This document shows positions 57,045 through 63,938 of a stretch of 64,000 nucleotides of DNA, piece after piece. The position numbers were made by a program, and so were the translations under genes. The stretch covers positions 1 through 64,000 of the forward strand of contig CALUHR010000005.1 of NCBI GenBank assembly GCA_944320495.1, given 5' to 3'. How positions within the stretch are numbered: position 1 is the stretch's first letter; each line of letters begins with the position of its first letter. A model generated the notes under the pieces. That model had not been told where the DNA came from and ran no database searches. It saw nothing but the letters and a program-made list of their open reading frames with translations. The DNA comes from Candidatus Methanomethylophilaceae archaeon. GTDB lineage: Archaea; Thermoplasmatota; Thermoplasmata; Methanomassiliicoccales; Methanomethylophilaceae.

Positions 57045-57339
57045 CTCTTGATCGAACCGTGGAGGTTGTTCCTAGTATATTGGATGATAGGTCCATCTCA
57101 TGCGGGCCCTCTGTGTTCGGGCACGGAAGACGGACATTCCGCATCGCAGAACGATGGAATCCGAGACTGTCGTCGGTCTCTTGCCGTCGAAGGCCACACT
57201 GCAAAGCAGCGCCTCCCCTTATCATGGCATCCATCGGTTGGAACGGATGGGACCTATTCGGGACAAACGACCGAACGGACCTATAACGTTGCGGAAACAA
57301 CGGAACCAATCATAATCTCCTCCGACCCTCTCCATCCCC

Positions 57340-57963
57340 ATGCTGGGAAAGGACATCGTCATCGACCGCGAGAAGTGCGACGGGTGCGGACTGTGCGTCC
57401 AGGCGTGCCACGAGGGCGCCCTGGCCATCGTCGACGGCAAGGCCGCTCTCGTCAGGAAGGACTTCTGCGACGGGCTGGGGGACTGCCTGCCGGCCTGCCC
57501 CCAGGGTGCGATATCCTTCGCCGACCGCCGGTCATCGAGCACCGAGTGCGGATCCGGGTTCGACTCCGGATACCAGTGGCCCATCCAGCTCGCCCTCGTG
57601 CCCCCGAGATGGGACTTCTACCGCGGCACGATCGTCATCGCGGCGGACTGCACCGCGTTCGTCATGGACCGCTTCAGGTCGGTGATGGCCAGGGGCGACC
57701 CCGTGATCATCGGATGCCCCAAGCTGGACGACCGCGCCAGGTTCGACAAGGTCCTGGCCATCCTGAGGGACAACCCCGTCGACGAGGTCCGCGTCATACG
57801 CATGGAGGTCCCCTGCTGCCGCGCGCTCACAAACATCGTCAGGGCCGCGGCGGAGCAGTGCGGCAGGGATGTTCGCGTGACCGAGACCATAGTCTCCCGC
57901 GGCGGGTCAGTGCTGTCCGCGGAGCCTCCGCAGGCGCCCGCCGGGTTCGTCGGGCTGAGGCGA
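57340..57963 (+). CDS. 4Fe-4S dicluster domain protein
   Basis: CDGCGLC..ACHEGA, CDGLGDCLPACP, QWPIQL, GCPKLD, MEVPCC; CGA 57961-57963. Confidence 0.88.
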
Positions 57964-57966
57964 TCG

Positions 57967-58587
57967 TCGCCTCTTTACCGCCAGGTACAGGACCCCGGGC
58001 TCCCCCGGGATCGCCCTCGCGTCCATGCCGACGGAATCGAGGAGCGAGAGGATCTCATCGTCGGGGATCATCCTCGCCCCGTAGTCCCTGTTGATCTTCT
58101 CGACGATCTCGTCCCTTCCGGCGCCGAACCTCTCCTCGGCGCCGATGGCGAGGATGCCCCCGGGTGCGAGGACCCTGGCGATCTCGACCAGACCGGCCCT
58201 CAGGTCGGGCCAGAAGAAGTAGGTCTCGATGGCCGTGACCATCGCGAAGGACCCGTCGCCGAAGGGGAGGTCGTCCACCGAAGCCAGTTGGAGGTCGAAC
58301 CTTCTGGAACCCATGAGATTCTCGTTCATCTCGCGGGTGACCGCGAGCGAGTCCTCGGAGATGTCCACGCCCGCAAATCCAGCGTCGGGATACCTTGCGG
58401 AGAGCCTTCTGAGGAATCCGCCCCCGCCGCATCCGACGTCGAGGATGCGGCCGTCGACCGTCGCGGGGAGCCTCTCGAGGCAGAACTCCCAGAGGGGGAC
58501 GTGGTGCTCGTTCATCCTGGCGAGGACCTTCCTGCCGTCCTCGCCGATGGGCTTCCTGCACTGGGATCTGAGATGCTCTTCGGCCAT
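57967..58587 (-). CDS. Class I SAM-dependent methyltransferase
   Basis: ILDVGCGGG, GVDIS, LPFGDGSF, ETYFFWPD; tandem CGA CGA (57967-69, 57964-66) after LAVKR. Confidence 0.9.
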
Positions 58588-58629
58588 GGAAGAAGGGATG
58601 GCCTGCTGGGATAAGGATTCGATGATTGG

Positions 58630-59568
58630 TCAGACTCGCTGATCGGCGTCCGGTCCGACGTACCTGGAGCGGAACGACGCCTTCCCGACCTCGTACAGCA
58701 TGAGGTCGTCGGCGACGTACGATTCGGGGAAGATCCCCCTGGCCTCGGCCTCGAGGACGCTCCTGTCGTCGTAGCGGTGGCTCACATGCGTCATGATGAG
58801 ATGCCCGACCCCGGCCTCCCTCGCGAGGCGCGCGGCCTGTGCCGCAGTGGTGTGGTTGTGCTTTCCGGCGTTCTCCGCCTCGGCGTCCATGTAGGTGGCC
58901 TCGTGGATCAGCACGTCCACCCCATGGGCGGCCTCGACGGTGCTGTCCGCCGGTTTCGTATCCCCGGTGTACGCGACGCTGATGCCCGGAACGGGAGGTC
59001 CTATGACCATGTCCGGCGTGATGTCCCTCACCGGCTCACCGCGCTTCAGCCTCGCCATGTCCGGGCCGTCCCTGGCGCCCAGTGCGAGCGCCCTCTCATG
59101 ATCGAGCTTCCCGGGCCTGTCCGGTCCGCGGAGGACGTAGCCTATCGAGAACATGCCATGGTCCGTCCTGAAGCAGGACGCCCCGAAGCCGCAGGCCTGG
59201 AACGTCTCGCCTCCGGACAGCTCCCTCACGTCTATCGGATAGCTCAGCTCGCCCCCGGTGGCCTCCATGGCCGTGTCGATGAGCGCGCGTATGCCGGGCG
59301 GGCCGCATATCAGAAGGGGATCCCTGCGGTCCGACAGGCTCATGGTCTGGAGCAGACCGGGCAGACCGAACACGTGGTCCCCGTGCAGGTGCGTGACGAG
59401 GATCGCGCCTATCTTCATGAACGAATAGGGGGACTCCATCAGCCTGCGCTGGGTCCCCTCGCCGCAGTCGAGGAGGACTATCCCGCGGCCCTCCTTCACT
59501 GCGATGCAGGAAGTCGAACGGTCCTTGGAGGGGACGGCCGCGGACGTCCCCAGGAACAGGATCTCCAT
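58630..59568 (-). CDS. rnz: Ribonuclease Z
   Basis: LGTSAAVP, DCGEGTQ, THLHGDH, GDT, HEATY, HTTA, THVSHRY; ends CAG CGA GTC TGA. Confidence 0.95.
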   Translation of the reverse strand: MEILFLGTSAAVPSKDRSTSCIAVKEGRGIVLLDCGEGTQRRLMESPYSFMKIGAILVTHLHGDHVFGLPGLLQTMSLSDRRDPLLICGPPGIRALIDTAMEATGGELSYPIDVRELSGGETFQACGFGASCFRTDHGMFSIGYVLRGPDRPGKLDHERALALGARDGPDMARLKRGEPVRDITPDMVIGPPVPGISVAYTGDTKPADSTVEAAHGVDVLIHEATYMDAEAENAGKHNHTTAAQAARLAREAGVGHLIMTHVSHRYDDRSVLEAEARGIFPESYVADDLMLYEVGKASFRSRYVGPDADQRV

Positions 59569-59780
59569 CGGTAGACCTGGTCGATCTCCCTGTCCTGCTT
59601 GGTCTGCTTCTTGTACTCCTTGTAGTGCTCCTTGCAGAGGTGGACGCTGCGGAGCCCCTGGGACTTGTAGGAGAGACCGCATCTGGAGGCCTGCTTGATG
59701 TTGATCGAGCGCTCCGCGGGCTTGTCGCAGCCAGCGACGTCGCAGACTTCCTCGGCGGTTCCATGCTTTGCCAGTGCCAT
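59568..59780 (-). CDS. Small Zn-finger-like protein (CxxxxC...HxCxxH)
   Basis: CDVAGC...HLCKEHYKEYKK; CGA 59568-59570 overlaps the rnz ATG (CGATG). Confidence 0.75.
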
Positions 59781-60056
59781 GCCACCCGGATAGACCTAAT
59801 CAATAGATAAGGGTGCCAGACGGAACGACGATCTGGCGATGCTTCCGGCTCGAGCCACCATACCGCGTCCCTTCCCCGAGCAGGACCCGACGGGGCCCCG
59901 GAGAAGTGGGGATGGGATGGCTTGGGACTCCGCCATCGCCGCGGTCGCGAAGGCCCCGGCCTGCACGGTCTCGCGCAGGCGAACGGTCTGAAACGGGGGC
60001 ATCCAGGACCCCCTTTCCCCACCGGTGCCTACGAATCCATTTAATCGGACACGCCG

Positions 60057-60725
60057 ATGGCCCCCACCATGACTCTCGTATCCCCGTCCATCCTCTCCGC
60101 AGACTTCTCCAGACTCGGCGACGAGGTCGCCCGTGTGGACCGCTCTGGCGCGGACTGGGTCCATCTGGACGTCATGGACGGGATGTTCGTCCCGAACATC
60201 ACATTCGGACCGCCAGTCATCAAGGCTGTCAGGCCCTGCTCCGACAGGCCCTTCGACGCCCATCTCATGATACAGGACCCGGCGAGGTACATCGACGCCT
60301 TCGCCGACGCGGGATGCGATTCGATCACCGTCCACGTGGAGGCCGACGGGGACGTCAGGGACGCCGTCAGGCGCATCTCCGACCATGGGCTGGGCGTGGG
60401 GATCTCCATCAACCCCGAGACCCCCTTCGAGAGGATCGAGCCGTTCCTCCCCGATGCGGACATCGTCCTCGTCATGACCGTCCATCCCGGGTTCGGGGGC
60501 CAGTCGTTCATCGGGGACTGCGTGCCCAAGATCTCCATGGCAAGGCAGTGGGCCGAGGACCACAACCCCGGGCTGCACGTCTCCGTGGACGGCGGCATCA
60601 ATGACGTCACCGCGCGCACCTGCGTCGAGGCGGGCGCGGACGTGCTCGTGGCCGGATCCTTCCTCTTCAAGAAGGAGGACATGGCGCCCACCATCGAGGC
60701 GTGGCACGGCATGAGGGTGAGGCGA
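60057..60725 (+). CDS. rpe: Ribulose-phosphate 3-epimerase
   Basis: SPSILSADF, HLDVMDG.FVPNITFG, DAHLM, VMTVHPGFGGQ, VDGGIN, LVAGS; 222 aa to CGA 60723-60725. Confidence 0.95.
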
Positions 60726-60726
60726 G

Positions 60727-61755
60727 ATGGGAGTAAACCTCTCGCCCATCGTGGAGTCGGCGCCGATAGAGCTGTCCGACCTCCGCGGGAAGACCGTCGC
60801 CATCGACGCGTACAACACCATCTTCCAGTTCCTCTCGATCATCAGGCAGCCCGACGGGAAGCCGCTCATGGACGACGACGGAATGGTCACGTCCCATCTC
60901 TCGGGACTGCTGTATAGGACCGCGAATCTGATCGAGAACGGCATCGAGCCGGCGTTCGTCTTCGACGGGAAGCCCAGCGAGCTCAAGGCCGGGACCATCG
61001 AGGAGCGCATCGCCAGGCGCGAGAAGGCCAGGGAGGAGTACGAGCAGGCGCTGAGGGAGGGCGACATGCAGAAGGCGTTCTCCAAGGCGCAGCAGACCTC
61101 CAGGATCACGCCGGACATCCTGTCCACCTCGAAGGAGCTGCTGACGCTGATGGGCATACCCGTGATCCAGGCGCCGAGCGACGGGGAGGCCCAGGGGGCG
61201 TACATGTGCCTCAAGGGCGACGTCCATGCCGCCGCCTCCCAGGACTTCGATTCGATTCTCTTCGGCGCGCCCACGCTGGTGCGCAACATCACCATCTCCG
61301 GCAGGCGCAAGGTCCCCGGCAAGAACCTCTACAAGACCGTCCAGCCCGAGATCATAGACACCGGGAGGATGCTCTCGGACCTCGGGGTCACGAGGGAGCA
61401 GCTGGTGGACGTCTGCATCATGATCGGCACCGACTTCAACCCCGGGGTGTCCGGCATCGGGCCGAAGAAGGGATTGAAGCTGATCCAGCAGTACGGCGAC
61501 CTGGAGCACGTGATCGCCGCCAAGGGCTACGACATCCCCGGCTACGAGGAGGTCCGCGAGATCTTCCTGGACGGGCCCAAATCGGACGATTACTCGGTGA
61601 AGCCCGGCCAGGTGGACGCCGACGGAGTGCTGGCCATGATGTCCTCCCACGGGTTCTCGGAGGATCGCGTCAGGACGGTGCTAGGCAAAATGACTGCCGC
61701 CCGCAAGGCGGAGTCTGACAGAAGGAAGCAGAGGTCTCTGGACAGCTGGTTCCGA
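60727..61755 (+). CDS. fen: Flap endonuclease 1
   Basis: MGVNL, AIDAYN, APSDGEAQ, SQDFDS, GTDFN.GVSGIGPK; C-terminal PIP box QRSLDSWF then CGA, giving 342 aa. Confidence 0.97.
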
Positions 61756-62427
61756 TCGCGCCCTCACGGCCAGCCTCACCAGGTCATGCCCCTGGGAGAA
61801 CAGCCTGCAGTAGACGTCCCTGCACCTCTTGTAAGACCGGAAGGTCCTCTCGGCGGCCTCTACGTCGCCGTACACCTTCCAGCATCCGATGCAGCGGCAG
61901 CACCTGCCCTCGTTCTCGATGTACCCGCGGACGTCCTCCATGGGATAGTCCAGGAACACGCCGACCTCAGGGGGCATCCTGGGACAGAGCACGAACCTGC
62001 GGCAGAGCTGGTCCACCATGTGCTCCGCGTTCCCGCTGTCGTAGCCGTAGTCCTCGAGGAAGGACATGACCTCGCGGTCTGCGATCCTCGCGCAGAGCAT
62101 CGACGGGCGGTACACGTACACGAGCGAGCCCTCGCCGTCGAAGCTTATGATGCGCACGCGGACGCCGCGGTCGCGGAGCATGCCCTCGATCTCCCTGGTC
62201 TGATGGAGAATACCATGGGGGTCGGACTCCACCCTGAACATGCTTCCGCACTTCAGGCCCGCCAAGGTCGGCGAACAGTGGCGGACGACGCGCTCGCGCA
62301 GGTCGGGAACGGAGGTTCCCACCCGTCCGGGGCATGTCTCTAATATTGGACGGGCTGGCTCATGGATCTCTGCTATGTCGGAAAGTCCCTTCCCGCAGAC
62401 CGAGTCGCCGTGTATGTCCGACCTCAT
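61756..62427 (-). CDS. DUF3793-family protein
   Basis: HCSPTLAGLK, LVYVYRP, PPEVGVFLDYPMEDV, GCWKVYGD; CGA at 61756-61758. Confidence 0.85.
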
Positions 62428-62432
62428 GGTGA

Positions 62433-62497
62433 TTAGGACATCCTAAACTGCGTATATAAGATTTAGGCTCAACTAATAAAATCAAATCGAGCCTAAA
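62433..62497. promoter_or_regulatory. DtxR/IdeR-like operator array over a divergent promoter
   Basis: TTAGGAcaTCCTAA (62433-46), TTAGGctcaACTAA (62463-76) and GAGCCTAAA (62489-97) flank TATATAA (62453-59). Confidence 0.6.
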
Positions 62498-62511
62498 ACA
62501 TCGCAAAGGAA

Positions 62512-63237
62512 ATGTCCGGGACGATGCATGCGGGTGCCATGGGATTCGCCGACGCGCACCTCCACCCGCTCGAGATCGCGGACAGCGGAGCGTATCCGGA
62601 CCTCGGGGAGGCGGAGGTCCTCTTCGGGTGCGTGTCATCGTCATCGCAGTGGGACGCCATGTCCTCCTTCGAGGACAGCAGGATCAGGCGCTTCTACGGC
62701 GTGCATCCGTGGAACGCGTCGGAATGGTCCGCGGACGCGTGCGCGAGGCTGGAATCCATCCTCGAGGATGATGAGAGAGCGGGTATCGGCGAGATAGGTC
62801 TCGACTCGAAGCACGGGACGACGGAAGAGCAGGCGGAGGCCTTCGACGCCCAGCTCGCGCTGGCCGAGAGGTTCGGAAGGCTGGTGAACATCCACTGCGT
62901 CGGATGCGAGAGGGAGGTCCTGGAGCATCTGGAGCGCCACAGACGCATACCCGGAATCGTGATCCATTCCTTCTCGAACGAGAGCTACACGGTCCCGTTC
63001 GTCAGGCTGGGATGCCATCTGTCGGTGAACCCGCGCATATTGGCGCGGTCCGAGGTACGCATCAGGAAGCTGATGGATTCCATCCCAGGGGACAGGCTCC
63101 TCCTGGAGTCGGATGCTCCTTTCACCCCGCGCTTCACCGGAATGATGGATTTCGCCGAGAGACTAGCCGGAGCAATCGGAAGCGACGCGGGGACCCTTCT
63201 GGGCGCGGCGCTGGACAACGCGAGGTCGATTTCATGA
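62512..63237 (+). CDS. tatD: TatD-family nuclease
   Basis: DAHLH, GVHPW, IGEIGLD, NIHC, IHSF, LLESDAP. Confidence 0.92.
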   Translation: MSGTMHAGAMGFADAHLHPLEIADSGAYPDLGEAEVLFGCVSSSSQWDAMSSFEDSRIRRFYGVHPWNASEWSADACARLESILEDDERAGIGEIGLDSKHGTTEEQAEAFDAQLALAERFGRLVNIHCVGCEREVLEHLERHRRIPGIVIHSFSNESYTVPFVRLGCHLSVNPRILARSEVRIRKLMDSIPGDRLLLESDAPFTPRFTGMMDFAERLAGAIGSDAGTLLGAALDNARSIS

Positions 63238-63938
63238 ACGGGATGAACGACAGGACCGGGCTGATACTCGGAGAGGATGGACTCGAGAGGCTGAGGGACG
63301 CGCATGTCGTCCTCGCGGGTGCCGGAGCCGTCGGAGGATACGCGCTGGAGGGGCTCGTCAGGGCCGGCGTCGGGCACATCCGCGTGGTGGACGCCGACGT
63401 GTTCTCTGAGAGCAACCTCAACCGCCAGATCCTCGCCACCGTTGACACCATCGGGAGGCCCAAGTCGGAGGTGGCCTGCGAGCGCGCCAGGTCGATCAAT
63501 CCCGATGTGGACATCGAGGGGCTCCCGCTACTGGTCTCCGAGGAGACGATCCCCGAGATCCTGGATGGCTGCGAGGTCCTCGTGGACGCCATCGACACCG
63601 TCCGCCACAAGACGGCGCTCATACGCGCCGCGGTGGAGATGGGGATCCACGTCTACTCGTCGATGGGCGCGGCGCTGCACACCGACCCGCTGGCGGTGCG
63701 CATCGACACGCTGAAGAGGACGTCCGTGTGCCCGGTGGCCTCCGCGGTCAGGAAGGCACTGAGGGACATGGACACGTCCGACGTGACGTGCGTGTACTCG
63801 GTGGAGCCGCCGGTGACAGTCCCCACGGAGAGGGACGGGCACGGGAAGAGCGTGCTCGGCTCCCTGCCCACAATCCCGGCGGTGTTCGGGATGACGCTGG
63901 CGAACTGCGCCGTGATGAGGATCGCCATCGACAGTCGA
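63234..63938 (+). CDS. ThiF/TcdA-like (tRNA threonylcarbamoyladenosine dehydratase family) protein
   Basis: GAGAVGG, DADVFSESNLNRQ, DAIDT, SSMGAA, TSVCPVA; CGA 63936-63938 after RIAIDS; standard-code end 63965. Confidence 0.9.

Follow-up and report, generated by a model that had tools for sequence, protein, structure and literature searches.

The window, i.e., the whole stretch of 64,000 nucleotides of Methanomethylophilaceae DNA analysed here, carries towards its end three adjacent genes, the last two of which converge. The first one encodes a ribulose-phosphate 3-epimerase (222 codons, 60057..60722, plus strand) and matches Pfam PF00834 over profile positions 2-198 of 198 (1.7e-70). It is followed by a CGA codon (60723..60725, +), which orthologous terminators mark as the end of the gene and which lies one base before the start codon of its neighbour (CGA-G-ATG). 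This neighbour (342 codons, 60727..61752, +) codes for the flap endonuclease Fen1: it exhibits the XPG_N and XPG_I domains, carries the C-terminal PIP box QRSLDSWF (61729..61752, +; read directly and conserved in relatives), and aligns end to end with a solved archaeal protein, the FEN-1 of P. horikoshii (1mc8, 1e-99). The third gene is located on the minus strand (223 codons, 62427..61759) and encodes a DUF3793 protein. Its match to PF12672 (2e-50; 171.5 bits vs. a Pfam cut-off of 25.1) covers the whole domain, i.e., profile positions 2-166 of 167, and ends at residue 219, four residues short of a CGA.

Between 61729 and 61758, the plus strand reads CAG AGG TCT CTG GAC AGC TGG TTC CGA TCG. 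In the Fen1 frame, which starts with the ATG at 60727, QRSLDSWF is thus followed by CGA at 61753-55 and by TCG at 61756-58, the latter being, on the opposite strand, a CGA in frame with the convergent DUF3793 gene. A first-pass annotation had described the two CGA codons as standing back to back, and the direct reading confirms this. With both of them taken as terminators, the genes abut in the palindrome CGATCG, with zero overlap. We assign the Fen1 terminator (61753..61755, +) from the TGA or CGA found at the same position throughout the genus, and the DUF3793 terminator (61756..61758, -) from relatives that carry TCA (= TGA) or TCG there with zero spacing. Under translation table 11, in contrast, the Fen1 frame remains open to 62343 (538 aa) and the DUF3793 frame to 61681 (248 aa). 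The 196 codons that table 11 adds to Fen1 (61756..62343, +) run antisense to DUF3793 and are regarded as false from GC pattern, substitutions and poor conservation; the 25 codons added to DUF3793 (61681..61755, -) run antisense to the Fen1 C-terminus, are closed by a TAG, and are regarded as false from frame reading. No back-up terminator occurs in the Fen1 frame for 116 codons past the CGA. Frameshifting at the CGA was considered and rejected, as neither shifted frame meets a stop soon past the junction. Within the three coding regions, CGA is used for none of 63 arginines (0/14 in the epimerase, 0/21 in Fen1, 0/28 in DUF3793).

Most reading frames in the last part of the window (57316-63938) are closed by CGA. 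Beside the genes above, these are the frames at 57316-57963 (+), 57967-58629 (-), 58636-59580 (-, RNase Z-like), 59568-59849 (-) and 63186-63938 (+). In the window as a whole, CGA accounts for 20 out of 58 confident frame ends.

Archaeal Fen1 proteins had been expected to end at the PIP box, and the solved ones (326-363 aa; PDB) indeed end 0-3 residues past it. When the 538-aa frame is aligned with solved archaeal FEN-1, the alignment is limited to residues 1-344; the 196-codon extension has no match to the solved proteins and no homologue. GC3 is 0.93 in the Fen1 core, while the extension shows a GC1 of 0.89 and a GC3 of 0.60, which is the antisense pattern of another gene. Frames and GC pattern agree with the proposal that Fen1 has 342 aa with CGA as stop and that the 538 aa of the standard code run antisense through DUF3793. 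A comparison with the nearest relative (99% Fen1 identity) leads to the same boundary. The Fen1 core differs at 53 nucleotides, distributed 47/3/3 over codon positions 3, 1 and 2, whereas beyond the junction 18 of the 26 substitutions fall on position 1 of the Fen1 frame, i.e., position 3 of DUF3793. The codon position that takes most substitutions thus changes right at the junction, from the third of Fen1 to the third of DUF3793. Residue changes amount to 18 out of 195 in the extension, 4 out of 342 in Fen1 and 5 out of 224 in DUF3793.

The exact 538-aa frame is present in public NCBI collections, and near-identical frames occur in independent ENA and Logan assemblies, which shows that the DNA is genuine. 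An in-silico recoding of the window was rejected on the same ground. Close homologues carrying the same extension had been named as the observation that would speak against a Fen1 of 342 aa. Such frames of 538 aa do exist in close strains, but they are table-11 gene calls: in the public strain variants, 7-10% of the residues differ in the extension compared with 0.6-2.3% in the core, its substitutions follow the DUF3793 frame, and in other strains it is cut by a standard stop at 356 or 369 aa. Members of the DUF3793 cluster with 223 aa likewise end at the junction position, with a standard stop. An extension that is variable, poorly conserved and truncated in strains is best understood as a product of gene calling under table 11, not as a conserved part of the protein.

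For the comparison of gene ends, genomes with a Fen1 at least 74% identical to ours were counted as the same genus, Ca. Methanoprimaticola (GTDB UBA71; 36 genomes, each a species), and were set beside 25 genomes of other genera. In all 61 the PIP box is kept as Q[RK]SLDxWF with the terminator directly after it. The codon in this position is TGA in 27 and CGA in 9 members of the genus, the latter including the MG2 and Mx06 lineages, with neither TAA nor TAG, while the other genera show TGA in 15, TAA in 8 and TAG in 2 cases and never CGA. Since all 36 species of the genus have either TGA or CGA at this point and the coding signal stops there, the CGA at the Fen1 end is not a matter of chance. 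The junction had been interpreted as the analogue of a convergent TGA|TCA junction, with TGATCA or similar predicted for relatives. Junctions with zero spacing in the relatives bear this out: TGATCA is found in G011, G002, G006 and others, and the mixed forms TGATCG (G014, UBA71) and CGATCA (L153, L158) occur as well. CGATCG is shared by the window, G018, Ca. M. hominis Mx06, UBA480 and UBA537.

The epimerase gives a second comparison. Its terminator is TGA in 19, CGA in 9 and TAA in 1 genome of the genus, and TGA in 15 and TAA in 4 of 19 genomes of other genera, again with no CGA. Orthologues of all three genes, Fen1, DUF3793 and the epimerase, thus carry standard stops where the source genome has CGA, and TGA and CGA replace each other in both directions at other gene ends within the genus, too. 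In the Fen1 tree, CGA is found in a well-supported clade of 11 species (8 CGA, 3 TGA) with one further appearance elsewhere, and at least three to four changes between TGA and CGA are needed. CGA terminators are frequent in the source genome and its near relatives and much rarer in other members of the genus. Small samples of other species in the genus contain 0-4 of them, and samples of 80 kb from G008 and G015 had no CGA at orthologous gene ends except for the release-factor site described below. As a sense codon, CGA is rare across most of the Methanomethylophilaceae (approximately 0-3% of arginine codons in neighbouring genera), and depletion alone is therefore no marker of a code change.

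The source assembly (1.77 Mb, 62% GC, about 1,800 genes) allows a statistical view. Coding frames were marked by GC3 >= 0.8 together with GC1 > GC2, and frames of at least 100 codons were considered confident. Coding signal flanks in-frame CGA on both sides in 10 cases and lies upstream only in 664, a ratio of 0.015, which is to be compared with 0.031 for TGA, 0.024 for TAA and 0.17-0.63 for sense codons. Coding signal continues past CGA in 2% of the cases vs. 39-59% for eight control sense codons. The 1231 confident frame ends comprise 888 TGA, 296 CGA, 32 TAA and 15 TAG. Most of the ten apparently internal CGAs are terminators with a same-frame gene downstream. Out of frame, CGA is among the commonest trinucleotides, with 97,784 occurrences on both strands; its depletion is thus aware of the reading frame and points to the ribosome. 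The following base differs as well: T stands at +4 in 56% of CGA terminators vs. 29% of TGA terminators, and A is avoided after CGA. Among the 19 abutting convergent pairs of confident genes in the whole genome, 9 are CGA|CGA, 10 are mixed and none is TGA|TGA, although TGA outnumbers CGA threefold among all terminators; the preference of CGA for T at +4 explains this in part only. False extensions past CGA under table 11 have a median length of 27 codons, and 83 of them reach at least 100 codons. A scan in which each codon in turn was added as a stop and the loss of long ORFs was measured proved uninformative in this GC-rich genome.

One of the in-frame CGAs, on the minus strand of C13 at about 357786 (reverse-strand coordinates), has 191 coding codons before and 157 after it. 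The region behind it opens with a DRDD-type phosphatase-like motif, and no start codon lies nearby; the CGA in question may represent a read-through fusion or the junction of two enzymes. A screen by GC3 only had suggested TAG as a common sense codon, which was rejected because the signal came from antisense "shadow" frames, whose GC3 is high. With GC1 > GC2 added, TAG behaves as a rare, partly read-through stop. The genome encodes PylS (C9:67854-68522, -), and coding signal continues after 40% of the 15 TAG-closed frames, as is expected where the amber codon is also read as pyrrolysine.

A tRNA-Arg(UCG) gene, cognate to CGA, is present at C13:413317-413390 (+; locus L063:1501-1574). In this tRNA, A31 and A39 form a mismatch, the D loop is short, and no other of the 45 tRNAs is without a 31-39 pair. 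Its counterparts in the remaining genus members and in outgroup genomes were collected with a cloverleaf covariance model, as BLAST missed diverged copies. Genus-wide, positions 31-39 are occupied by A.A, C.A or U.C, and four species have a C33 in the loop instead, while eight genomes of other genera and families show the canonical C31-G39 pair and loop. The retention of this tRNA indicates that CGA is not a pure stop and that some read-through must occur.

The release factor aRF1 is encoded by a single-copy gene (C2:85936-87165, -; locus L031:1087-2316) that itself contains one in-frame CGA. Counted from the likely start, it specifies the conserved Arg78, 20 residues past the NIKS motif, and it has C at +4. 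Arg78 is encoded by CGA in 28 out of 29 genomes of the genus; only G005 deviates, a bin for which contamination amounts to 8%. In other families this site is CGC, CGT, CGG or AGA, and 2-4 CGAs are scattered elsewhere in the gene. Neighbouring genera of the family tend to have a single CGA in aRF1, at Arg25 (g11, g12, g13, g15, g17) or at Arg11 (g16, g23), and CGA in the release-factor gene thus appears to predate the spread of CGA terminators. As synthesis of aRF1 needs read-through of its own CGA, the codon should be leaky to some degree. A search for genus-specific substitutions in the codon-recognition motifs of aRF1 revealed none that is convincing: only D17 and C142 are specific to the genus, and the substitutions next to NIKS and YxCxxxF that set it apart from other families are common to other genera of the Methanomethylophilaceae.

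Judged by the comparison of gene ends and the codon statistics, CGA is a stop codon in this genome beside TGA, TAA and rare TAG. We hold it to be highly probable that Fen1 and DUF3793 end at their CGA codons and that CGA serves as a fourth stop here and in part of the genus; the mechanism by which aRF1 and tRNA act is one that we infer. The single aRF1 would recognise CGA in the ribosomal A site and outcompete a presumably weakened tRNA-Arg(UCG). This tRNA would be kept because the aRF1 gene has an in-frame CGA at a conserved arginine, and full-length aRF1 would arise only when CGA is read as arginine, resulting in a negative feedback on the release-factor level. The genomic data suggest such a competition between aRF1 and tRNA at CGA, with the release-factor gene as a putative sensor of the balance. 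For the broadest version we see roughly an even chance: a four-stop code of Ca. Methanoprimaticola, in which aRF1 reads CGA and a weakened tRNA together with read-through of the CGA in the aRF1 gene acts as balance. Its first step, a conserved in-frame CGA in aRF1, would already exist in neighbouring genera of the family. Such a code would represent the earliest known case of a sense codon turned into a stop in a free-living cell, visible in several stages.

The competitor with the best, though still small, prospects treats CGA as a hungry or unassigned codon. Poor reading by tRNA-Arg(UCG) would stall the ribosome, which would be released by aPelota/ABCE1 and peptidyl-tRNA hydrolase and not through recognition by aRF1. 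The genus-wide abnormal anticodon arm, the fact that no change specific to the genus was found in the decoding motifs of aRF1, and the near absence of sense CGA across the family are in agreement with this idea. However, approximately a quarter of all genes would then rely on slow rescue, and neither the conserved CGA in the release-factor gene nor the T preference at +4 would be explained. Context effects at +4 are typical of release-factor recognition. Alternatively, C-to-U editing may turn CGA into UGA in the messenger, so that the ribosome meets a standard stop. We consider this quite improbable. CGA and TGA do differ by a single C/T transition and alternate at orthologous sites, but a deaminase would hit out-of-frame CGA too, and it is solely in frame that the codon is missing (10 cases with signal on both sides, compared with the total number of CGAs given above). 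The frame is known only to the decoding ribosome, and editing would moreover destroy aRF1 at Arg78. We know of no C-to-U editing of archaeal messengers.

Hardly any weight is left for the standard code, with CGA as arginine, a Fen1 of 538 aa and a DUF3793 protein of 248 aa. In its favour, table 11 leaves the frames open, they were deposited as such, and the genome has a gene for tRNA-Arg(UCG). Yet the extension has the composition of an antisense strand and is unconserved, of varying length among strains and without homologue; its substitutions track the DUF3793 frame, and TGA replaces CGA in 27 sister species. This reading would need 296 tolerated stop-loss events and is already contradicted. 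Just as poor are the chances that an error in sequencing, in assembly or in methylation-linked base calling has put C in place of T. Many CGA terminators do lie in CGAT or CGATCG contexts, yet independent assemblies, made in different studies and with different assemblers, agree on the CGA at this site, the effect is frame-specific, and the epimerase terminator (CGA-G) lies outside any GATC motif.

Changes from sense to stop are known for AGA/AGG in vertebrate mitochondria and for UUA in Thraustochytrium (NCBI tables 2, 22, 23). UCA and UCG were reassigned to stop in the mitochondria of sphaeroplealean green algae (PMC6821328). A change in this direction is one that we found previously reported only for organelles (PMC6821328). 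Our case resembles the organelle cases in that the sense codon no longer occurs within genes and occupies gene ends at which relatives use standard stops, a pattern that fits disappearance of the codon followed by its capture. It differs in scale, a cellular genome of 1.77 Mb compared with a dozen genes, as well as in the cognate tRNA gene, which is kept though altered, and in the codon standing in frame in the release-factor gene.

The latter situation recalls bacterial release factor 2, whose gene prfB is autoregulated through an in-frame UGA that is rescued by a +1 frameshift. In both cases the gene contains an in-frame codon that its own factor would read as stop, so that synthesis would rise when the factor is scarce. 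Unlike the frameshift in prfB, the likely rescue in aRF1 is plain decoding by tRNA-Arg(UCG), and the feedback is deduced from conservation only. Within the same lineage, UAG is ambiguous between stop and pyrrolysine in Pyl-using methanogens including the Methanomethylophilaceae (PMC12626013). There a tRNA competes with aRF1, as we propose for CGA, and our source genome has PylS and almost no TAG terminators; the direction is reversed, however, as with UAG a stop gains a sense reading and with CGA a sense codon gains a stop reading.

A shortened anticodon stem that changes stop-codon reading is found in the tRNA-Trp of Blastocrithidia. More generally, tRNAs with 4-bp anticodon stems alter the reading of stop codons (PMC13092985). 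As in those systems, the shortened stem reported here would accompany a changed balance between tRNA and release factor. There the short stem lets a near-cognate tRNA read a stop, whereas here it is found in the cognate tRNA of the reassigned codon itself.

Our literature searches turned up no description of CGA as a stop for either Methanomassiliicoccales or Methanomethylophilaceae; a study from 2025 tabulates stop usage in the Methanomethylophilaceae and leaves CGA unmentioned (PMC12626013). CGA is absent from recognisable domains in two archaeal assemblies from hydrothermal vents, for which the author raises CGA as a possible stop and notes that the method cannot infer stops (bioRxiv 10.64898/2026.04.02.715157). 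Those archaea belong to another lineage with approximately 50% GC, have CGG reassigned to Trp, and no tRNA-UCG was found in them. Their description reports no comparison of gene ends, which the Fen1 and epimerase terminators supply here.

If our reading is true, this gut methanogen, an archaeon with about 1,800 genes, shows that capture of a sense codon as stop is possible in a large genome. The genus and the family would offer the stages of such a process: near-loss of the codon, a conserved CGA in aRF1, an altered tRNA, and then the spread of CGA terminators. Annotation under table 11 would be wrong for approximately a quarter of the genes in the source genome, including the public Fen1 of 538 aa. 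Codetta and KACI cannot infer stops, as their authors state, and such codes therefore escape current screens.

Public records also require some care with respect to their titles. Several of those titled as bacteria carry an archaeal Fen1 at 64-83% identity, namely the loci L151, L153, L158, L170, L172, L174-L176, L181, L186, L190 and L204. Their titles include Lachnospiraceae, Bifidobacteriaceae, Bacteroides ovatus, Prevotella hominis and Dialister hominis, and the underlying bins look mislabelled.
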